Origin: Candidatus Zhuqueibacterota bacterium
GTDB taxonomy: Bacteria; Zhuqueibacterota; QNDG01; JABMRT01
Assembly: GCA_013202295.1 (NCBI GenBank)
Contig: JABMRT010000292.1
Location: forward strand, 12,486 to 76,485
Direction of reading: 5' to 3'
DNA length: 64,000 nt
Below, piece by piece: positions 48,985 through 58,921 of the stretch (within the stretch, counting starts at the first letter, position 1; each line of letters begins with the position of its first letter). A program made the position numbers and the translations under genes. The notes beneath the pieces were generated by a model, which ran no database searches, was not told the DNA's origin, and saw only the letters and a program-made list of their open reading frames with translations.

Positions 48985-51900
48985 TTATTTAACAACCGCA
49001 ATCTTAAACGTCGTTGTCTTTTCACCTGCATTGGATGTCGCAGTCACCTGGCAGAAGTACACACCGGAATCCACATCATCCAGATCCCAGACAATCTCAT
49101 TATCCGTCATGGGCACTCCCGGACCGGTAAACGACGCCACCCGATCGCCGGAGAGATCATAAATTTTAATTTGGACAGAAGCACTTTGTTCAAGCCGATA
49201 CCGGATGATTGTATAGTTCTCGATATTGGGATTTGGATAATTGTACGCCAGGTTTGTCGGGAAGAAATCCGCTTTAGACGTTGGAGAATCCAGCTCAATT
49301 TGAAGCCATCCCGAATGGCCTGAATCGTTCTGATACCCGGCCCATTGAATATCCTCTGGAGATCCGGCCAAATCAAAAACGGATAACGTACCCTCTTCGG
49401 ACACAGCAATCACTTCAATATCTTCATCCCCATCCAAATCACAAACGCGTGGTGTAATCGTGGAAGGACCACCTAGCGGCAGACTGGTCGATTCCCTCGA
49501 ACCATCTGTAGACACGATCTCCAGATTACCCTCGGAAGTCGTGACCAGAATCTCAGGAATTTCATCCCCATCCGTATCTGCGACGATTGGAGAGGACAAC
49601 TCAACATCGCGCTCAAAGGTTGGCACAGGAAATCCATTACATAAACTGCCATTGTGATTAAACGCCCAGACCTGGCCTTGAGCAGTGCAGATTAATTCAG
49701 GGATGCCATCGACATCAATTTCACCTGCCGCGAATACGATGAAGGATTCACTAACTCCGGGATACTCGAATTGTTGCGATTCGATGAGGCCCGTTTCATC
49801 ATCACCCCACAGGATCACTCCACCAGTTGAGGACCTCGCGTAAACCGCTAACAATGGAAATTGTTCAATGGTTGGTGAGTTGAGATTGACCGGAAAACCA
49901 ATGGGAATGCCCGTTTCACCCGGTCCATCCGCTGATGTGGTGTGGTCGAATTCATTTGCTGGTAAAATAGCGGCACCACCATCCTCAAGAGTCACCAATA
50001 GATACGAAGATTCAACTCTGCAAAGCCCGACTACAGCTGAACCATTTCCTGCATCGGATTCCCAGTCCATCTGATTATGCTGATCAATGGCTCGAACCAC
50101 ACCTTCGTTGGTGCCTATAATAATTCCGCGATCCCAAGCTGTCAGTGCCGTGATAGTACCTGAGGGCAATTGATTATCAATAATCATTTCAATTGCATCA
50201 TCTCGTATGTGATAAGCCCGGACATTATCTCCTTTAGCTAGGACAAGTTCATCATCCAAACCATCGTGGTTCACATCAAAAATCACTGGTGGAATTAAAA
50301 TGGAATCACCCACATCAAGAAAAAGGGCAGATGGATAATAGGTCGTATCCCCCGTAAAAGAAACGCGATATTGAATATCTCCACTATCAACCAACGGAGA
50401 ACCGTCCGCCTGCCACGCGAACACTTTGCCTTCACGGGTGGCCACAACGATTTCTGGAAATCCATCCCCATTGATATCACCCGTGATCGGTGGATAAGCA
50501 TCCAATCCTGATTCGAAAAATGCGGGGAATCCAGTTTGATTCAGATCATTAGAAACAGAAAAGCTCATGACCGTATCGGATTCTGAAAATCCGGAAATCA
50601 CAATATGAGAATTTGCACCGGAATAGGATCGGCTGTTCGGATGTGTATCAGGCGTGAAAGCGACAGAATCGAAATTGTTTCCCAATAAATTGATCTCATT
50701 ACTGGCCCAGAATGCATCATGCCACACACCCGATTCTGCACCCGCACCCGGATCAATCATACCATATGACTCTCCAATATCCTGTGCACCATCCGCTTCT
50801 TCCAGATCCACTGCCCGATGATGCCTGTCTGTATTCACCTGATTGTCTGCGATCTTGTCGCGAAGTATGGACTCATCAATGTGCCAGATCAGAATGCCCG
50901 AACCCGGAATGCCGTAATCATATTCATCGATCTCTACAATGACACCCACCGCTTCTTCAGCCTCGATCTGTCCGGTCTCTAAAAATCTTACTTCCTGGCC
51001 TGATGCATCACGCCCCACAGACACACCATCCCCATTGGGATCGTATTGCCGGTTTTCGATAAGGAAATATTCATCCGTACTGATGGATACCTTGTACACA
51101 GCGGGGGCTGATCCGGCAATCGAGCAGGCCACATCCAGATCATTTTGGGTTCGAACTTCAATTGGGGTCTGCCATCCCATAAACACCTTGGACCACGCGC
51201 ACGGTTCGGCCGGAAGCAATCCGTTAAAATTACCCGATCCCTGATCCATCAAGCCCCAGCGGCCAATTCCCGAATATCCATTCTGTGTATTCCACAGCGC
51301 GGGCAGACCGAGTTGAAATCCAAACATTAAAGTCATGGTTCCGATCAGCCCGATTTCATACCCTTCCTGACTCTGTGTTTCAGGTAAAATCAATCCTTCG
51401 GTCACAAAAAAACTGCCGTCTTCAACCGCAATACCATCGTAAGTGGGATCCTCATCCGCGAGATATTTACGAAGATCCTTCACTGTGAGAAACGCCGAGG
51501 GAATATCCCGCGGTGTGGGATCGTATCCCAAATCAATGTCTTTGCCCACACCCGCATGAAAAACAACATACACATCATAATCAGAAAACACGACACCATA
51601 ATCATCAGCCAAAGTAATCGCATCGCGAAACAGCTCGGCCAGCCCCTGATCTGTTGCAGCGTCTGATGAAGCCGGATTGTACTCGGCCATGTGATTTGGC
51701 AAATTAAGCACATAAGGATGGACCGTAAATCCAAGACCCAATTTTTGAGAGGACACGGTTCGATAGTAATTGGAAAGGGCGGTCAACTGATCTTCAAAAT
51801 AGGATTGATTATGCGGCGGTGGATCAATGACAGGGAGTTCCGGAATGGAAAGGTCGAATAATCCATCACCGTTGGTTCCACCATCCTCATCCGGCTGAAA

Positions 51901-52125
51901 CGCCACCATCAGCGCCAGAATGTGCAAAGAATCCGGTGCGGTTTGAAGAGTGGTCCCGGATCTCAGGATCAGAGCATCAGACTGCCAGCTGTATTGTGAA
52001 TGGGTGACCAGATTTCGCCTTGAAGGTTGATTCTTCCGGTATTGGAACCGAACGGAATCTTTTGCTGAAAGATTGATCGATAAGAGCAGACAGCCCATCA
52101 ATCCATACAAAGTCCATCGTTTCAT
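48985..52125 (-). CDS. Immune-inhibitor-A (M6)-like protein with FG-GAP repeats and a T9SS-type C-terminal domain; zinc motif degenerate
   Basis: VFHAG, GIGRWGLM, EYFLIENRQ and VDLEEADG (M6 features); GDINGDG.PEIV repeats; YNYPNP..GVYF C-terminus. Confidence 0.82.
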   Translation of the reverse strand: MKRWTLYGLMGCLLLSINLSAKDSVRFQYRKNQPSRRNLVTHSQYSWQSDALILRSGTTLQTAPDSLHILALMVAFQPDEDGGTNGDGLFDLSIPELPVIDPPPHNQSYFEDQLTALSNYYRTVSSQKLGLGFTVHPYVLNLPNHMAEYNPASSDAATDQGLAELFRDAITLADDYGVVFSDYDVYVVFHAGVGKDIDLGYDPTPRDIPSAFLTVKDLRKYLADEDPTYDGIAVEDGSFFVTEGLILPETQSQEGYEIGLIGTMTLMFGFQLGLPALWNTQNGYSGIGRWGLMDQGSGNFNGLLPAEPCAWSKVFMGWQTPIEVRTQNDLDVACSIAGSAPAVYKVSISTDEYFLIENRQYDPNGDGVSVGRDASGQEVRFLETGQIEAEEAVGVIVEIDEYDYGIPGSGILIWHIDESILRDKIADNQVNTDRHHRAVDLEEADGAQDIGESYGMIDPGAGAESGVWHDAFWASNEINLLGNNFDSVAFTPDTHPNSRSYSGANSHIVISGFSESDTVMSFSVSNDLNQTGFPAFFESGLDAYPPITGDINGDGFPEIVVATREGKVFAWQADGSPLVDSGDIQYRVSFTGDTTYYPSALFLDVGDSILIPPVIFDVNHDGLDDELVLAKGDNVRAYHIRDDAIEMIIDNQLPSGTITALTAWDRGIIIGTNEGVVRAIDQHNQMDWESDAGNGSAVVGLCRVESSYLLVTLEDGGAAILPANEFDHTTSADGPGETGIPIGFPVNLNSPTIEQFPLLAVYARSSTGGVILWGDDETGLIESQQFEYPGVSESFIVFAAGEIDVDGIPELICTAQGQVWAFNHNGSLCNGFPVPTFERDVELSSPIVADTDGDEIPEILVTTSEGNLEIVSTDGSRESTSLPLGGPSTITPRVCDLDGDEDIEVIAVSEEGTLSVFDLAGSPEDIQWAGYQNDSGHSGWLQIELDSPTSKADFFPTNLAYNYPNPNIENYTIIRYRLEQSASVQIKIYDLSGDRVASFTGPGVPMTDNEIVWDLDDVDSGVYFCQVTATSNAGEKTTTFKIAVVK

Positions 52126-52235: not shown

Positions 52236-53288
52236 TTAAAATGCTGCCGTCAAAGAGAATCGCATGGTATCTGAAAGCGGATGGCCCTGCTCGGCTGCAA
52301 CATATCCGAAATCAAAACGAAATGATGAATACTGGAGACCGGCGCCGAAGGTCGGATATTTCACCTTGCCCTCTTCATCATAATAATATCCTGTACGGAT
52401 GAATATCATATTGGAATATACATATTCCAGACCGATGGAGCTGATAAGTTTTTCAGCTTGCTCGCTCAATGATTCATCCCCCCAGGAAGTAAAAATAGCC
52501 TGATAGAACGGCTGAGGTTTTTCATCCGCGTGACGCACGACAAGGAGTTTGTTGGTTTCAACAAGCACAGTTATCTTGTTAAACTCAGAGTTGATCACAT
52601 CGTACCCGAAACCTACTCTCAAATTCGTGGGCAATGGATCAGCTTGATCTGCATCGACATAGGTGATCTTCGGGCCCATGTTGGAAAGATTCGCTCCAAA
52701 ACGAAGCCCTTTGACGAAACCGAAATGATAGAGCACGCCAAGATCTACGGCAAACGCATTGCCAATACCCTTGCCTTTTTCTTCTCCGGCACCCATTGGG
52801 GCCAGATTACTGCGGATATACCGCATACCCACGCCGATTCCGAAATTATCAGTGAGCTTGGTCGCGTAGTTCAATGTGACAGCCAGATCCCAGCTCGTGA
52901 ATGTATCCAGTGGTTCAGGACTATCCCTCGTATACACCTGCTCACCCAAATTAAGAAAGGTGATGTTTCCGCCAAGCGTACCACCCAGATTTTCGACATA
53001 CTGTTTGTATGCGAAAAACTCATAAGACATGTCATCCACAAGCTGCGGAAGCCATTTGGCATGCATGAACGTCACTTCACGGCCAGTCTGAAAAGCCAAT
53101 CCGGCCGGATTCCAGAACGACGCGGTAGCATCGTCTGCAACAGATACAAATGCGTTGCCCATACCGGCAGCGCGAGCCCCAGGCGAAATGAGCAAAAAGA
53201 GGACGCCCGCCTCACTCACAGCAAATACATTAGATGCCGCGAACAGGGTGATCAGAGTCAGCAGCAGTGACAGGGTCCGTTTCTTCAT
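52236..53288 (-). CDS. porV: PorV/PorQ-family (FadL-like) outer-membrane barrel
   Basis: FLLISPGARAAGMG, DDATASFWNPAGL, GANLSNMGPK, DPLPTNLR.G and FIRTGYY motifs. Confidence 0.88.
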   Translation of the reverse strand: MKKRTLSLLLTLITLFAASNVFAVSEAGVLFLLISPGARAAGMGNAFVSVADDATASFWNPAGLAFQTGREVTFMHAKWLPQLVDDMSYEFFAYKQYVENLGGTLGGNITFLNLGEQVYTRDSPEPLDTFTSWDLAVTLNYATKLTDNFGIGVGMRYIRSNLAPMGAGEEKGKGIGNAFAVDLGVLYHFGFVKGLRFGANLSNMGPKITYVDADQADPLPTNLRVGFGYDVINSEFNKITVLVETNKLLVVRHADEKPQPFYQAIFTSWGDESLSEQAEKLISSIGLEYVYSNMIFIRTGYYYDEEGKVKYPTFGAGLQYSSFRFDFGYVAAEQGHPLSDTMRFSLTAAF

Positions 53289-53317
53289 GAGTTACCCTCC
53301 AAACACGTGATAAAATT

Positions 53318-53367
53318 AAAAAAACCGAACTGTCCGGAACACAAATAGGTTCCAAACGACGATTCGG
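53318..53367 (-). terminator. Attenuator terminator hairpin upstream of porV
   Basis: CCGAA-UCGUC-GUUU-GGAAC-loop-GUUCC-GGAC-AG-UUCGG then U7, ending about 30 nt before the porV ATG. Confidence 0.75.
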
Positions 53368-53418
53368 TCTGGCAAAGTTCGTTATACGAATCAATGGATA
53401 ATCGATTTAAAGAACCAA

Positions 53419-53469
53419 TTATTTTCTAATCCACCAGACCGTTAACGAACTTATATAGGCAATCTCCAT
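53419..53469 (-). CDS. Leader peptide MEIAYISSLTVWWIRK (TrpL-like, tandem Trp codons)
   Basis: ATG 53469, TGG TGG at 53436-53431, TAA 53421-53419; embedded in a 1:2 / 2:3 / 3:4 hairpin set. No clear Shine-Dalgarno. Confidence 0.65.
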   Translation of the reverse strand: MEIAYISSLTVWWIRK

Positions 53470-53489
53470 ACTTTTTTAAGATGGTTATA

Positions 53490-53518
53490 AATATATAAAA
53501 TCAAGATTTCAATGTCAA
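53490..53518 (-). promoter_or_regulatory. Sigma70-type promoter for the leader-porV transcript
   Basis: TTGACA-17 bp-TATATT on the minus strand. Confidence 0.7.
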
Positions 53519-53719
53519 GATTTATTTCTATCCACCCTTAATCATACATTAAATACATAATGCATAGATCATACCATAAAATAAGAGGAAAGGTTCCCAT
53601 TAATAATAGGGATTCATTCAATTTCCTGTTTTTTTGGATTTTGAATCCCTAAATTATAATTGGATTCTATCTGTGCTTCAGGATTGTATTCAGTTGTAGA
53701 ATTGTACTATTTTTCCACA

Positions 53720-54592
53720 TCAGGATGATTTTAGATCCTTTAAAAACCGTCGAAGCACTTCCACAACATCCGCTGTGTGTGTATTCTTATTCGTGCCCAT
53801 ATCTTCATAATGCACGTTCGGCAGCATCTCGACCATGCGTTTTAAATGTTGCGGTTCATGAAGTTTGTCCTTAGACGCACCGATCAATAACGTGGGCCGG
53901 TCAATGGTCTCAATGCGGTCCCAGATTGTATACTTCCAAAATTTCATGGCAGCTTTCTTAAGTTTAAAGGGATCGGCCGCATCAAGTGCGCGGCAATACT
54001 TGGTGTACTGGGCAGAGTCAACCTGCATATTGAGCCGAAAATGTTTCATATACCATTTAAGACCCGGTCTTAGAATTAAATACAATCTCGGATAAAAAAG
54101 ATAGATGATCAACTTCCAGTATCCGGGAACATTAAACACGGCATTCGGGGCCACCACTGCAATACACTTGGGTTTCTCCGGGATGCGATGGTAGCAATCC
54201 ATAATAACCGTCGCGCCCAGAGAACTGCCGAAAAGAAGGTAGGATCCATCTTTCAAATTCAGTTTAGCTACAAGATGGAGAATGTCATCCCCGATCGTTT
54301 CAACAGATAAAGTCACGTTCCCGCTAAGTTCGGATGATATTTTCTCACGCGTCTCAATCAAATACACACGAAACTCGCGTGTCATCTCAACAAGTACTTC
54401 CCGCCAACCTTCAAGCTGTGAGATCCAGCCGGGTACGAATATGATTGCGGGATAATCTTTTTCTTCAGCCGGTTCAAACGTCACAAGCCTGAGATGGACA
54501 CCCTCTGAAAGCTCGACCATCTGTTCAGAAGCAGTTGCCCCCGGTGCGCAAAAGGATTGAATGTCATTTGCATCCAATGCTTCATCATGCAT
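53720..54592 (-). CDS. Alpha/beta hydrolase
   Basis: IFVPGW, GSSLG nucleophile elbow, PTLLIGASKD; AGGAG before the ATG at 54592. Confidence 0.85.
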   Translation of the reverse strand: MHDEALDANDIQSFCAPGATASEQMVELSEGVHLRLVTFEPAEEKDYPAIIFVPGWISQLEGWREVLVEMTREFRVYLIETREKISSELSGNVTLSVETIGDDILHLVAKLNLKDGSYLLFGSSLGATVIMDCYHRIPEKPKCIAVVAPNAVFNVPGYWKLIIYLFYPRLYLILRPGLKWYMKHFRLNMQVDSAQYTKYCRALDAADPFKLKKAAMKFWKYTIWDRIETIDRPTLLIGASKDKLHEPQHLKRMVEMLPNVHYEDMGTNKNTHTADVVEVLRRFLKDLKSS

Positions 54593-55105: not shown

Positions 55106-56659
55106 ATGGGAAAAGCGGACGCTAAAAATAAAGAACTCAATGCCAAGGAAGCGCTGATCAAGCAGATGGGCGGCGACAAAGCTGTTGCCAAACAGCATGA
55201 AAAAGGCAAATTAACAGCGCGTGAAAGGATCGAAGCCTTTTTTGATCTTGACACATTCCGCGAAATTGACATGTTCGTGGAACATCGGAACAACAATTTC
55301 GGCCTCGACAAACTAACCATTCCATCCGATGGCGTAATTATCGGACATGGCCTTGTCAGCGGTCGGCCTGTATTCGCCTACTTTCAGGATTTTACGAGCC
55401 GTGGCGGATCACTTGGTGAAATGCACGCCAAGAAAATTTGTAAAGTGATGGACATGGCAGCCAAGGCCGGCGCCCCGATGGTCGGTTTTAACGATTCCGG
55501 CGGCGCACGCATTCAGGAAGGCATTGACGCACTTTCCGGTTTTGGCGAGATCTTCTTCCGCAATGCCCGCACATCCGGCGTGATTCCCCAGATCTCAGTG
55601 ATCATGGGTCCCTGTGCAGGCGGCGCCGTATACTCACCCGCCATGACAGACTGGGTGTTCATGGTCAAAAAAACCAGCTTTATGTACATTACCGGCCCGG
55701 AAGTCATCAAAACCGTGACCGGTGAAAAAACCAATCATGAGGAGTTGGGCGGCGCACTGGCCCATAACACCAAAAGCGGCAATGCCCACTTTGCCTGCAA
55801 CGACGAGCAGGATGCTATCAACGGCGTCAAAACCCTGCTCAGCTTCCTGCCGGACAACAACATGGGTGAGCCCCCCTATATCATGCCTTCGGACAGTCCT
55901 GAACGCATTTGTCCCGAACTGGACACCATCATTCCCGAAGACACAAAAAAAGCATACAACATGCGCGATGTGATCCACAGCATCGTGGACAACGGTGCAT
56001 TTTTTGAATCGCATCAGCACTATGCGGAAAATATCATCACAGCGCTTGCACGCCTGAATGGTCGTCCTGTGGGTATCATCGCCAGCCAACCACAATATCT
56101 GGCCGGTTGTCTGGATATCAATGCCTCGGACAAGGCCGCACGTTTTATCCGTACCTGTGACGCCTTTAATATCCCCCTGATTAATCTGGTGGATGTACCG
56201 GGTTACCTCCCCGGTAAAGACCAGGAGTGGAATGGCATCATCCGTCACGGCGCGAAACTGCTCTGGAGCTATTCCGAAGCGACTGTGCCCAAATTGACAG
56301 TGATCACCCGCAAAGCCTACGGTGGCGCTTACATCGCTATGTGCTCCCGCCATCTCGGCGCAGACATGGTCTTCGCATGGCCCTCTGCAGAGATCGCAGT
56401 GATGGGAGCCGAAGGTGCAGTCAATATCATCTACCGTAAAGAGATCGCAGCAAGCAAGCAGGGCGATAAGGTCAAAGAAGAAAAGATGGATGAATATCAG
56501 GACCTCCTCTACAATCCCTATGTGGCGGCCAGTCGTGGTTACATTGACGCGGTCATCCAGCCGCAGCAAACCCGCGTCCGGTTGATTGAGGCGCTGGAAA
56601 TCATGAAAACCAAAAATGAAACCCTGCCACCCAAGAAACACGGCAACATTCCCCTGTAG
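55106..56659 (+). CDS. Acyl-CoA carboxyltransferase subunit (methylmalonyl-/propionyl-CoA; transcarboxylase 12S-like)
   Basis: GKLTARERI, DSGGARIQEG, GPCAGGAVYSPA, RKAYGGAY and KKHGNIPL motifs. Confidence 0.95.
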   Translation: MGKADAKNKELNAKEALIKQMGGDKAVAKQHEKGKLTARERIEAFFDLDTFREIDMFVEHRNNNFGLDKLTIPSDGVIIGHGLVSGRPVFAYFQDFTSRGGSLGEMHAKKICKVMDMAAKAGAPMVGFNDSGGARIQEGIDALSGFGEIFFRNARTSGVIPQISVIMGPCAGGAVYSPAMTDWVFMVKKTSFMYITGPEVIKTVTGEKTNHEELGGALAHNTKSGNAHFACNDEQDAINGVKTLLSFLPDNNMGEPPYIMPSDSPERICPELDTIIPEDTKKAYNMRDVIHSIVDNGAFFESHQHYAENIITALARLNGRPVGIIASQPQYLAGCLDINASDKAARFIRTCDAFNIPLINLVDVPGYLPGKDQEWNGIIRHGAKLLWSYSEATVPKLTVITRKAYGGAYIAMCSRHLGADMVFAWPSAEIAVMGAEGAVNIIYRKEIAASKQGDKVKEEKMDEYQDLLYNPYVAASRGYIDAVIQPQQTRVRLIEALEIMKTKNETLPPKKHGNIPL

Positions 56660-56671
56660 GAGTGACCTGAT

Positions 56672-57007
56672 ATGAATAAAAGAAAAGCAGCAGCGATTGC
56701 GGGTGTCATGCATTACCTGCAGGAGGAACGGTCCCAACAGGAAGATGCGTCTCCATATGCACTTCCCCACCATCGTATTAATCCATGGGCCTGCTTTGGT
56801 CGTCGCACCACTGCCAGACTGAACAAACTGGTTCAGCTCCAATTATTCAGAAAACATCATTTCTGTCCGGATCACAATCAGCCGGAAAAAGGATTTCAGC
56901 TGCAACGTGCCAAATGGCTCGGTTCCCGGATGTGCCGCTCTGTTTCCTACAGAGCCACATCACGAATGCAGACAAGTATGCAACCGAGAGACGATAAGAA
57001 GGAGTAA
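56672..57007 (+). CDS. Small carboxylase-associated protein (epsilon-subunit-like N-terminus)
   Basis: AAAIAGVMHYL...W..FGR pattern between the two carboxylase genes; GGAG RBS. Confidence 0.55.
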   Translation: MNKRKAAAIAGVMHYLQEERSQQEDASPYALPHHRINPWACFGRRTTARLNKLVQLQLFRKHHFCPDHNQPEKGFQLQRAKWLGSRMCRSVSYRATSRMQTSMQPRDDKKE

Positions 57008-57016
57008 AAATAGATC

Positions 57017-58921
57017 ATGTTTTTTCTTAAAAAGAATAAAAAGATCGATGTGATGATGACCGCATTCCGTGACGGATTTCAATCCGTTTATGGCGCTCGT
57101 GTATTGACCCAGGATTTTCTACCCGCGATCCCAGTCGCTATGGAAGCTGGTATTCAGCATTTCGAAGTCGGCGGCGGTGCACGGTATCAGGCACCCTACT
57201 TCTACAGTAATGAGGATGCCTTTGACATGATGGACCAGATCCGTCAGACTACCGGCCCTGAAGCCAACCTGCAGACGCTCGCACGCGGTGTGAATGTGGT
57301 AGGTTTGGATTCACAAAGCTCAGACATAATCAAGCTGCACGCGGAAATGTTCAAAAAACACGGCATGACGACCATACGAAATTTTGATGCATTGAATGAT
57401 GTGGATAATTTGGATTACAGTGGCCGCTGCATTGTCAATGCCGGATTGAAACACGAAATTTGTGTCACATTGATGGGAATGCCTCCCGGACTCTCCGGCG
57501 CGCACACACACGAATTTTATATTGATGTGCTGAGCAAGATCCGGGCTGCGGATATTCCATTCGATTCGCTCTGCTTCAAGGATGCATCAGGCACAGCGCT
57601 GCCGCAAACCGTTTATAAAACGGTAAAAAAAGCACGCTCCAAGATGGGCAGAAAATTTCCTATCCGCTATCACACACATGAAACGGCAGGCATCAGCGTG
57701 GCATGTTATATGGCGGCCTTAGAAGCAGGTGCAAACGGTATTGACCTCTCCATGGCGCCCTGTTCAGGCGGCACGTGTCAAACAGATATCGTAGTCATGT
57801 CGCAGGCGCTCAAAGGCGGCCAATTTGATCTGGGGCTCGACATCGAAAAACTGATGAAAGCGGAAGCGTTTTTTAAAGAATGTATGAAGGATTACGTGGA
57901 TCTGCCTGAAGCCGTCCGGGTGGAGCCTATGATTTTCTACTCGCCCATGCCAGGCGGCGCATTGACCGCCAACACACAGATGATGCGTGACAATAAAATC
58001 CTGGATCGTTATCCCGAAGTGATCGCAGCCATGCGCGAAGTCGTCGCTAAGGGCGGTTTCGGCACGTCAGTCACTCCGGTTTCTCAGTTTTATTTTCAAC
58101 AGGCCTTTAATAACGTGATGGCCGGTCCGTGGGAAAAAATCGCTGAAGGATATGGCAAAATGGTACTCGGCTATTTCGGTAAAACCCCTGTACCGCCAGA
58201 TCCCAACATAGTGAAACTCGCCCAGGATCAGCTCAATCTACCGCCAACCACACGCAGTCCCCGCATAATCAATGATGAAGACCCCACCAAAGGACGCGCG
58301 GTTGCAGAGGCCATGTTACGGGAAAATGGTCTTCCTATCACAGATGAAAATGTGTTCATCGCCGCAACATGTAAGGAAAAAGGCATCATCTTCCTAAAAG
58401 GCGATGCTACAGTCAACATCCGCAAGAAAAAGCCGCAGAACGGGGACGATGTAAAACATGAATTCCCCGACGGCATGCCGGAAAAACCGGAGGACATCCG
58501 CAGCTTTGATGTCTATGTGGATAATGAATACTTCAAAGTGGAAGTCAATGATCCGTTGGGGCCACCGCGTATTCGCCATTATCCGGTCTTCCCCAATCCG
58601 ACCTTCCAGACCAGTGCAGCCCACACCCAAGGCGGCATGAATGCGGGGCCAGGTGTTTCTACTCCGACCAAGAAAAAGAAAGATTTTGCACCCGCTGAAG
58701 GTGAAATTGCTGTAACTGCTCCTCTGCCAGGTATCATCATCCGCTACGACAAGAAAGAGGGCGATACCATTAAAGAAGGCGAAACCCTAGCTGTCATTGA
58801 AGCTATGAAAATGAATAACAACATCGACTCACCGACAGATGGAATTATGGGAAAACTTCACTTCAAACCCGGAAAGACCATAGATAAAAGCGATGTGATC
58901 TGCACGATAAAAGCATCGTAG
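57017..58921 (+). CDS. Pyruvate/oxaloacetate carboxyltransferase fused to a biotin carrier (OadA / PycB / 5S-1.3S-like)
   Basis: FRDGFQS, FKDASG, HTHET, MPGG and C-terminal EAMKM biotinylation motifs. Confidence 0.93.
   Translation: MFFLKKNKKIDVMMTAFRDGFQSVYGARVLTQDFLPAIPVAMEAGIQHFEVGGGARYQAPYFYSNEDAFDMMDQIRQTTGPEANLQTLARGVNVVGLDSQSSDIIKLHAEMFKKHGMTTIRNFDALNDVDNLDYSGRCIVNAGLKHEICVTLMGMPPGLSGAHTHEFYIDVLSKIRAADIPFDSLCFKDASGTALPQTVYKTVKKARSKMGRKFPIRYHTHETAGISVACYMAALEAGANGIDLSMAPCSGGTCQTDIVVMSQALKGGQFDLGLDIEKLMKAEAFFKECMKDYVDLPEAVRVEPMIFYSPMPGGALTANTQMMRDNKILDRYPEVIAAMREVVAKGGFGTSVTPVSQFYFQQAFNNVMAGPWEKIAEGYGKMVLGYFGKTPVPPDPNIVKLAQDQLNLPPTTRSPRIINDEDPTKGRAVAEAMLRENGLPITDENVFIAATCKEKGIIFLKGDATVNIRKKKPQNGDDVKHEFPDGMPEKPEDIRSFDVYVDNEYFKVEVNDPLGPPRIRHYPVFPNPTFQTSAAHTQGGMNAGPGVSTPTKKKKDFAPAEGEIAVTAPLPGIIIRYDKKEGDTIKEGETLAVIEAMKMNNNIDSPTDGIMGKLHFKPGKTIDKSDVICTIKAS

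Follow-up and report, generated by a model that had tools for sequence, protein, structure and literature searches.

A conserved leader RNA with competing helices and a predicted terminator precedes porV and polysaccharide export genes in KSB1/Calditrichota-type bacteria

We describe a structured leader RNA that lies directly upstream of porV, the gene of an outer-membrane component of the type IX secretion system (T9SS), in a 64,000-nt stretch of contig JABMRT010000292.1 from Candidatus Zhuqueibacterota bacterium (hereafter the window; coordinates are positions in it, and the leader and porV are all on its minus strand). Judging from comparison with related loci, the element represents an apparently undescribed family of cis-regulatory leader RNAs in KSB1/Calditrichota-type bacteria, with one case in Ignavibacteriota. 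An initial annotation of the window had read the same region as a trpL-type attenuator, in which tandem Trp codons of a leader peptide would control porV instead of a trp operon. The conserved structured leader is the part of that picture which chance does not explain.

The family was delimited by a scan for the PorV protein in one genome per species, which yielded 80 loci labelled mostly as uncultured candidate division KSB1, Calditrichota or simply "bacterium", together with Ignavibacteriota and others. Across the ~20 closest loci, with PorV itself only 60–75% identical, 330 nt upstream of the gene could be aligned, and the promoter, an A(A)GGAG box, GCCUAU, AGUUCGUUAAAGGUYUGRUGGAU, AUCCAUCGRCCU..ACGRACU, CCARACCGAAU and AUUCGG-U7 are conserved. 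A covariance model built from 19 of the closest leaders has exactly one match in the window (53318-53474, 114.6 bits) and one plus-strand match in 58 of the 80 genome loci; most Ignavibacteria and Bacteroidota loci are without a match. The carriers include L059, a Caldithrix sp. MAG, in which the leader scores 43 bits. A pattern scan of metagenomes gave 52 further loci, 24 of them true model matches, and the total sample comprises 73 distinct leader sequences, of which 41 are in the model alignment (A2; the MAFFT alignment is referred to as A1). The leader is always co-oriented with, and directly upstream of, a gene: a porV homologue follows immediately in 71 loci, starting 15–77 nt past the leader end in the genome loci where this was measured. 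A repeat or mobile element could be ruled out, with a single occurrence of the stem sequence in the window and one covariance-model match per locus. When 52900-54000 was compared with Rfam 15 (4227 models), the sole match at E ≤ 10 was a chance snoRNA hit (E 9.2), and neither the whole window nor 14 related loci held a match at gathering score to any family, including T-box, the known riboswitches and JUMPstart.

The order of elements in the window is the one given by the initial annotation (Table 1): a TTGACA-17-TATATT promoter, a long hairpin of segments 1 and 2, a terminator hairpin of segments 3 and 4 ending in U7, and porV so close behind that no space is left for a second promoter. The predicted promoter scores 11/12 against the consensus and is the top site in a 3.2-kb scan; CTTGACAtt and the −10 element recur at an unchanged distance, both in close relatives and in the copies ahead of polysaccharide genes described below, and transcription would start near 53483. 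In the 5' box, column conservation is 0.83–1.00 for GGAG and GCCUAU. An all-against-all column covariation search found no partner for the box; in the distant clade, its GGAG and GCCUAU elements find partners further downstream and so form additional outer helices (GGAG.../...CUCC and GCCUAU/AUAGGC). Hairpin 1 is fully complementary at its P2 base (AAGTTCGTTA at 53452-53443 with TAACGAACTT at 53384-53375, 10/10), and further in TGGAT (53433-53429) pairs with ATCCA (53399-53395). Without any constraint, RNAalifold applied to the MAFFT alignment returned P2 (AGUUCGU/ACGAACU), P3 (AGG/CCU), P4 (GGUGGA/UCCAUC) and the terminator base (ACCGAAU/AUUCGGU), with compensatory changes at 6 pairs. In the 41-leader alignment, 95.7% of the cells are paired and 14 of 23 pairs have changed on both sides, a result that 0 of 500 shuffles reach, with pair counts somewhat inflated by the fitting of A2 to the nested structure. 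The two strands of the hairpin are unequally constrained, the commonest base having frequencies of 0.93 and 0.91 on the 5' strand versus 0.80 and 0.72 on the 3' strand (G-U tolerated). The minimum free energy (MFE) of the leader is −53.4 kcal/mol, as compared to −41.1 ± 3.5 for shuffled sequences (z = −3.5).

A G+C-containing terminator stem followed by a U-tract is present in all aligned leaders, and the stem covaries. Its base (CCGAAU/AUUCGG) is near-invariant in sequence throughout the family (0.94 and 0.92), which is unusual for an intrinsic terminator; since it shares a UUCG/CGAA core with P2 (GUUCG/CGAAC), further alternative pairings are possible. As to the gene behind it, the initial annotation had left a choice between a PorV-type and a FadL-like barrel. 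The product matches PF19572 PorV well above the cut-off (E 6.7e-38, 131 bits against 27), while FadL/Toluene_X, at 18.9, falls under its cut-off of 29.7.

Two further helices compete with this nested fold. The first, GGUCUGG/CCAGACC (hereafter X:Z), had been listed initially as a caveat to the proposed antiterminator; the pairing is real, but it ranks instead among the better-supported alternative helices. Its cells are paired in 94% of cases in A1 and 85.8% in A2, it covaries from CG to UA and from GC to AU with a score reached by 0 of 500 shuffles, and the pairing collapses when the partner is slid by a single column. The Z strand supplies the first bases of the terminator, so that formation of X:Z shortens the stem beside the U-tract; X:Z also crosses P2 and so can form only as a pseudoknot or with P2 open. 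The second is the 2:3 antiterminator of the initial annotation, present both in the window and in L134, the nearest of the relatives fetched (PorV 84.6% identical), as a 7-bp helix of UGAUUCG or CGAUUCG with CGAAUCG. When the segment 2 of each leader was paired with its own terminator 5' half and with the halves of other leaders, specificity for the native partner was found in both clades. Native pairs of the close clade reach the top 10% in competition with non-native partners in 10 of 41 cases, with helices of 8–12 bp that differ in sequence and register (GCCUUUGAGCG/UGCUCAAGGGU, CGUUUACGGACU/GGUCCGUGAAUG, UUGACCUU/AAGGUCAA). In the distant clade, where the outer-helix 3' strand was set against the terminator interior, the median rank is 0.15 for 2:3 versus 0.14 for the accepted outer helix 1:2, with covarying examples such as CUCACCA/UGGUGAG, GGCUUCUUGCU/GGCGAGAAGCU and GCGGCUCACCUUGUGU/AUGCGAGGUGAGUUGU. 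The outer-helix 3' strand is therefore as complementary to the terminator interior as to its 5' partner, which means that the terminator 5' strand mimics segment 1 (GYUYAARGG versus GUUAAAGG). On this comparative evidence, we consider that the general 1:2, 2:3, 3:4 architecture is right.

The gene contexts point beyond secretion. Among the 24 metagenome matches, 19 precede porV, one lies at a contig end and four (L083, L088, L100, L113) precede another gene, which starts ~10–35 nt past the leader. In L083 this first gene encodes a protein of the UDP-glucose/GDP-mannose dehydrogenase family and is followed by genes for Wza (Poly_export/SLBB), Wzz, a Wzy_C-domain protein of the O-antigen ligase/polymerase family, Wzz and a second Wzy_C-domain protein; dTDP-sugar enzymes lie upstream, and the polysaccharide operon exceeds 8 kb. 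The polysaccharide-context copies have the same promoter and their own terminator. In the Ignavibacteriota locus, a gene for a Wzx-type flippase sits between the leader and porV. Taken together, these contexts suggest that the leader controls both porV and surface-polysaccharide export in relatives.

Table 1 Features of the porV leader in the window and of its copies in other gene contexts
Feature	Position	Strand	Details
Predicted sigma-70-type promoter TTGACA-17-TATATT	53490..53518	−	−35 TTGACA 53518-53513; −10 TATATT 53495-53490
5' box A(A/U)GGAG-N3-GCCUAU	53455..53469	−	Unpaired in the close clade; first three bases are ATG in the window
Upstream open reading frame (uORF), 16 codons, MEIAYISSLTVWWIRK	53419..53469	−	ATG 53469 to TAA 53419; TGGTGG 53436-53431; lineage-specific
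Shine-Dalgarno (SD)-like GGAG, 7 nt, AUA-UAA start-stop	53451-53467	−	AUA UAA at 53456-53451
Hairpin 1 (segments 1 and 2)	53375..53452	−	P2 AAGUUCGUUA/UAACGAACUU; P3 and P4 (UGGAU/AUCCA) enclosing a variable apical region
X strand (CGGUCUGG; CGGTCTGG)	53434..53441	−	Overlaps P3 and P4; 8/8 complementary to 53372-53365
Z strand (CCAGACCG)	53365..53372	−	Last bases double as the start of the terminator stem (base ACCGAAU)
Segment 3 (CGAAUCG)	53360..53366	−	7 bp with segment 2 UGAUUCG 53393-53387
Predicted intrinsic terminator	53318..53368	−	Base ACCGAAU 53368-53362/GUUCGGU 53330-53324; inner GGAAC/GUUCC; U7 53324-53318
porV (350 aa)	52236..53288	−	SD GGAGGG 53300-53295; ATG 53288; start 29 nt past the U-tract
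Leader copy before UDP-sugar dehydrogenase-Wza-Wzz-Wzy operon	L083:8898-9070	−	
Leader copy before UDP-sugar dehydrogenase-Wza-Wzz-Wzy operon	L088:9606-9778		
Leader copy before UDP-sugar dehydrogenase-Wza-Wzz-Wzy operon	L100:980-1156	−	
Leader copy before UDP-sugar dehydrogenase-Wza-Wzz-Wzy operon	L113:310-476		
Leader before Wzx-type flippase (PF01943) gene overlapping porV	L063:1437-1636		Ignavibacteriota genome locus

Much of this layout is shared with the E. coli trpL, hisL and leuL leaders, which likewise are promoter-proximal, ~160 nt long and built of four segments with 1:2, 2:3 and 3:4 pairings, with a segment 3 similar to segment 1 and with a U-tract terminator near the first gene. 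In the classical Trp-codon version, a ribosome stalled at UGG-UGG would free segment 2 for segment 3 and thereby give read-through into porV. Every part needed for this is found in the window, namely the 16-codon uORF with its tandem UGG, read initially as lacking a clear SD and indeed having none ahead of its ATG, and the three pairings; moreover, a DNA contig from run X7, an environmental relative ~94% identical over the leader, has kept both the ATG and TGGTGG. It is the comparison of porV upstream regions, a check proposed with the initial annotation, that separates the stems, which covary, from the open reading frame (ORF), which is not conserved. The window ATG stands opposite AAG, TAG, GAG or AGG in 38 of the 41 aligned leaders (AAG 19, ATG 3, the rest TAG, GAG, AGG or other), and the hexamer at the TGGTGG position is TGGTGG in 16, TGATGG, a stop in that frame, in 10 and something else in 15. 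An ORF containing two adjacent Trp codons (WW) occurs in only 4 of 73 leaders, three of which begin it at another ATG just before the Trp pair (MVWWI...), and L134 reads UUUAAGGAGAUUGCC, with AAGGAG and no in-frame start. Being present in X7 but not in L134, the uORF is a recent, species-level feature, and the conservation of TGGTGG is explained by its place in two helices, as the 5' strand of P4 and within X:Z.

Energetics and gene content speak against the tryptophan model as well. In the ribosome-masked folding that had been suggested as a second check, a ribosome placed on UGGUGG still leaves the terminator fold (−29.8 kcal/mol) 7.4 kcal/mol better than the 2:3 fold (−22.4 kcal/mol). No tryptophan-related gene was present in any leader gene context examined, and the genes regulated besides porV would serve polysaccharide export, not the aromatic or indole uptake that Trp starvation had been proposed to induce. 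Thus, of the trpL-type architecture the mutually exclusive pairings stand, whereas the start codon, the Trp codons and the pathway genes are not conserved or do not match. This leader also differs from trpL, hisL and leuL in having no conserved translatable peptide or regulatory codons, in its genes, for an outer-membrane T9SS component and for polysaccharide export, and in a 2:3 helix weaker than the terminator. The WW uORF needs no explanation as a gene: it results from one A-to-T change in the conserved AAGGAG box, from which the frame runs on through one strand of a conserved helix. We therefore view the Trp leader peptide as a lineage-specific accident and the tryptophan reading, to which we attach next to no credence, as one that should be dropped. 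The case carries a caution, in that a textbook-like Trp leader peptide can come about when one base of a conserved non-coding RNA changes.

From the conservation, structure, covariation and gene contexts, and from the lack of a conserved Trp uORF, we infer instead a promoter-proximal transcription attenuator in which termination is the default and read-through is brought about via a factor acting on segment 1; belief and doubt are about evenly balanced for this model. A strong, probably constitutive promoter would give a leader of ~165 nt in the window and of roughly 150–200 nt across the family, in which segment 1 (AGGAG-GCCUAU-GUUCGUUAAxGGUCUGG) and segment 2 would form a very stable hairpin, and segments 3 and 4 would form the intrinsic terminator 29 nt ahead of the porV start. 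The best fold of the window sequence (MFE −47.6 kcal/mol) consists of hairpin 1 and the terminator; enforcing X:Z gives −41.2 kcal/mol, a cost of 6.4 kcal/mol even with P2 open, and enforcing 2:3 gives −29.5 kcal/mol, a cost of 18 kcal/mol. As both alternatives are costly and the terminator survives a ribosome on the Trp codons as well as masking of the 5' arm (see below), termination would be the default state and the antiterminating folds would need help. Read-through could then proceed via either of the weaker helices, that is, 2:3 or the pairing of GGUCUGG in segment 1 with CCAGACC, which would remove the base of the terminator stem. The sequence invariance of segment 1, combined with alternative helices weaker than the terminator, suggests a trans-acting factor, which would bind nascent segment 1 (AGGAG-GCCUAU-GUUCGUUAAAGG), or stabilise an alternative fold, before segment 2 emerges. 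Such a factor would most likely be an RNA-binding protein, possibly the ribosome. Given that the same switch precedes an O-antigen/exopolysaccharide export operon, the signal is probably related to the cell envelope or growth state rather than to tryptophan.

The closest functional analogy to this model is provided by the PyrR-pyr, TRAP-trp, BglG/SacY-RAT and T-box-tRNA systems of B. subtilis, in which the choice between a terminator and a weaker alternative helix is set by a factor on a conserved nascent leader. Unlike TRAP targets, none of the 73 leaders has (G/U)AG triplets spaced 2–3 nt, and unlike T-box leaders, the family, which belongs to other phyla (KSB1/Calditrichota and the one Ignavibacteriota case), has no T-box or other Rfam match.

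Several observations weigh against the attenuator. With the complete 5' arm masked in silico, just 17 of 65 leaders lost the terminator, versus 12% of shuffled controls, and the window leader kept it; thermodynamics by itself thus does not favour the alternative helices, which may be too weak to act unaided. X:Z, in addition to its need for a pseudoknot or an open P2, is broken in L128, L110 and L056 and is mutually exclusive with 2:3 in a nested fold, and the inflation of the A2 pair counts mentioned above tells in the same direction. Transcript data bear on the question through three short metatranscriptome contigs from runs X5 and X6, 95–99% identical and covering 53065-53354, which extend from inside the terminator hairpin (53354) across the U-tract into porV, none being placed on hairpin 1 (53373-53483). 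They are weak evidence, consistent with read-through from the leader promoter; these RNA contigs are short, of low depth and too few to reveal a terminated species, and may include DNA.

The invariance of segment 1 would also be accounted for if the ribosome itself were the factor, with AGGAG and a near-cognate AUH mini-ORF recruiting 30S or 70S particles that cover segment 1 and favour the antiterminator, thus coupling porV and polysaccharide expression to translation-initiation capacity. A ribosome positioned there would cover exactly the invariant segment. The distance from GGAG to AU is 7 nt in 44 of 54 leaders; over all 54, the codon is AUA in 30, AUC in 18, AUU in 5 and AUG in none. A 4-codon frame (AUH-NNN-GUU-CGU-UAA) closes at the conserved UAA in 38 of the 54, and of the 11 leaders carrying a +1 insertion, 9 have UGA or UAG in frame at one common downstream site, which holds the ORF at 7 codons. 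The pattern is suggestive. However, AUA and AUC are very poor start codons and the AUH starts are weak, conservation of the RNA sequence would by itself produce the pattern, and no more than two or three independent events may lie behind the link between insertion and stop. GGAG is furthermore tied up in pairing with CUCC in distant-clade leaders; AUH is missing from L052 and L028; and leaders would be expected to avoid AUG just as much if translation were harmful. Overall, we judge ribosome occupancy to be rather improbable. A separate micro-ORF candidate, NUG-CCU-AUN...UAA starting 1–2 nt past GGAG, was rejected, its spacing being too short and the frame missing in the L012 clade and the distant clade.

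X:Z covaries, crosses P2 and overlaps the terminator, and its fold lies just 6.4 kcal/mol above the MFE with P2 open, as would be expected of a metabolite or ion riboswitch in which a ligand stabilises P2 together with a GGUCUGG:CCAGACC pseudoknot, removes the terminator base and so acts as an ON switch for envelope genes. Conserved unpaired flanks (UAAA, the GCCUAU box and a U-rich linker), a terminator as expression platform and two or three functionally related gene contexts fit the same idea, and like terminator-coupled pseudoknot riboswitches the leader is structured and covarying, with a long-range helix whose 3' strand lies over the terminator stem. On the other hand, it matches 0 of the 4227 Rfam models, its conserved nucleotides are mostly inside helices rather than in junctions, no clear counterpart of X:Z is seen in the distant clade, where another competing pair is used, and pathway logic points to no ligand. 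A riboswitch is thus an unlikely explanation, albeit one to be taken seriously.

Another kind of complementarity was seen between the apical loop of hairpin 1 and the loop or interior of the terminator. It spans 9–15 bp in L004, L011, L016, L056, L108, L110, L128, L123 and L131, with sequences that differ between lineages (e.g., CUGUAGAAGUAG/CUACUUCUACAG and UUUUCGGCCUGU/ACAGGCCGAAGG), and was recognised by eye also in L014 and the L012 clade. These matches could represent a kissing-loop or another competing helix. In the window, a contiguous-helix search found a match of 6 bp only, not above chance, and a search for long gapped duplexes between the apex and the terminator loop gave noisy output.

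The presence of the leader ahead of an operon of >8 kb in L083 raises the question of processive antitermination, by a NusG paralogue of the RfaH, UpxY or LoaP type or a Q-like factor loaded close to the promoter. In Bacteroides, UpxY is loaded at leader elements of polysaccharide operons (PMC11685472), and the family described here has its conserved sequence 10–45 nt past the promoter. It further resembles RfaH-ops/JUMPStart, Bacteroides UpxY-opsX and LoaP leaders in being a conserved 5'-leader element of surface-polysaccharide operons in the FCB group that would involve read-through of termination. Unlike those leaders, it has covarying switch helices, which would be superfluous for a processive mechanism, and no GCGNAGC-type non-template hairpin; by the ops/opsX motif definitions of PMC11685472, none of the 73 leaders contains GCGGTAGC and one contains YGCGNAGCR, neither motif being in the window. 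No NusG paralogue was found in or beside operons of the family: phmmer with E. coli NusG and RfaH queries returned no NusG-like ORF at E ≤ 1 among 2721 ORFs from the window and 134 loci (~930 kb). Considering also that porV is a short target, we regard processive antitermination as very unlikely. A boxA-like NusB/NusE site, CUUUAAC, in the 3' arm of 13 of 73 leaders and absent from the window was likewise discarded; it lies on the less conserved strand and is a by-product of that arm pairing with GUUAAAG.

With a strong promoter and a terminator of its own, and a primary sequence highly conserved including the terminator stem, the ~165-nt transcript might alternatively act chiefly as a stand-alone small RNA, porV being expressed by constitutive leak through the terminator. 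The loop-loop complementarity of the two hairpins in a subclade suggests a compact fold that would suit such an RNA. Nevertheless, it always lies just upstream of a co-oriented gene, with 15–77 nt that leave no room for that gene to have its own promoter, it precedes three different, functionally linked operons, and the covarying helices over the terminator argue for a switch, which makes a primarily free-standing role scarcely probable.

The surroundings of the leader also show some regularity. Past porV, the gene at 48985-52125 (minus strand) specifies a protein of 1046 aa that combines FG-GAP repeats with a C-terminal sorting domain of the T9SS; homologues of it lie downstream of porV in 64 examined loci, making this a conserved pair, and a terminator-like hairpin (52166-52151) separates the two genes. 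Divergent from the porV side, 55106-58921 (plus strand) encodes a carboxyltransferase (PF01039) and a biotin-carrying carboxylase subunit (PYC_OADA, Biotin_lipoyl). The genes commonest upstream of the leader are ones that, by sequence reading without Pfam, we take to be housekeeping genes similar to accB, accC and gcvH; in distant-clade loci, too, the upstream genes look like these. With biotin-enzyme genes near the leader both in the window and in the distant clade, a loose synteny therefore persists.

Regulation of the T9SS has been described at the protein level, through the two-component system PorX/PorY and the sigma factor SigP, and our search of a paper library found neither RNA-level control of the T9SS nor a link of porV or the T9SS to a riboswitch or attenuator. 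In Porphyromonas, T9SS cargo is anchored to surface lipopolysaccharide; with cargo anchored to a surface polymer, co-regulating the shuttle and the polymer would make biological sense. More speculatively, and with rather more doubt than confidence, the leader may be the first member of an undescribed class of ligand- or ribosome-responsive RNA switches through which KSB1, Calditrichota and some Ignavibacteriota coordinate the T9SS shuttle PorV with O-antigen/exopolysaccharide export. Such a switch would respond either to an envelope-related metabolite, in the manner of a pseudoknot riboswitch, or to translation-initiation capacity, by way of the SD and the AUH mini-ORF. Since 73 distinct sequences are at hand, along with a covariance model and alternative helices open to testing, a search for the effector is practical. 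Regardless of what the effector may be, a terminator-based leader common to porV and Wzx/Wzy-type polysaccharide export operons would link the T9SS to surface polysaccharide at the RNA level in barely studied phyla.

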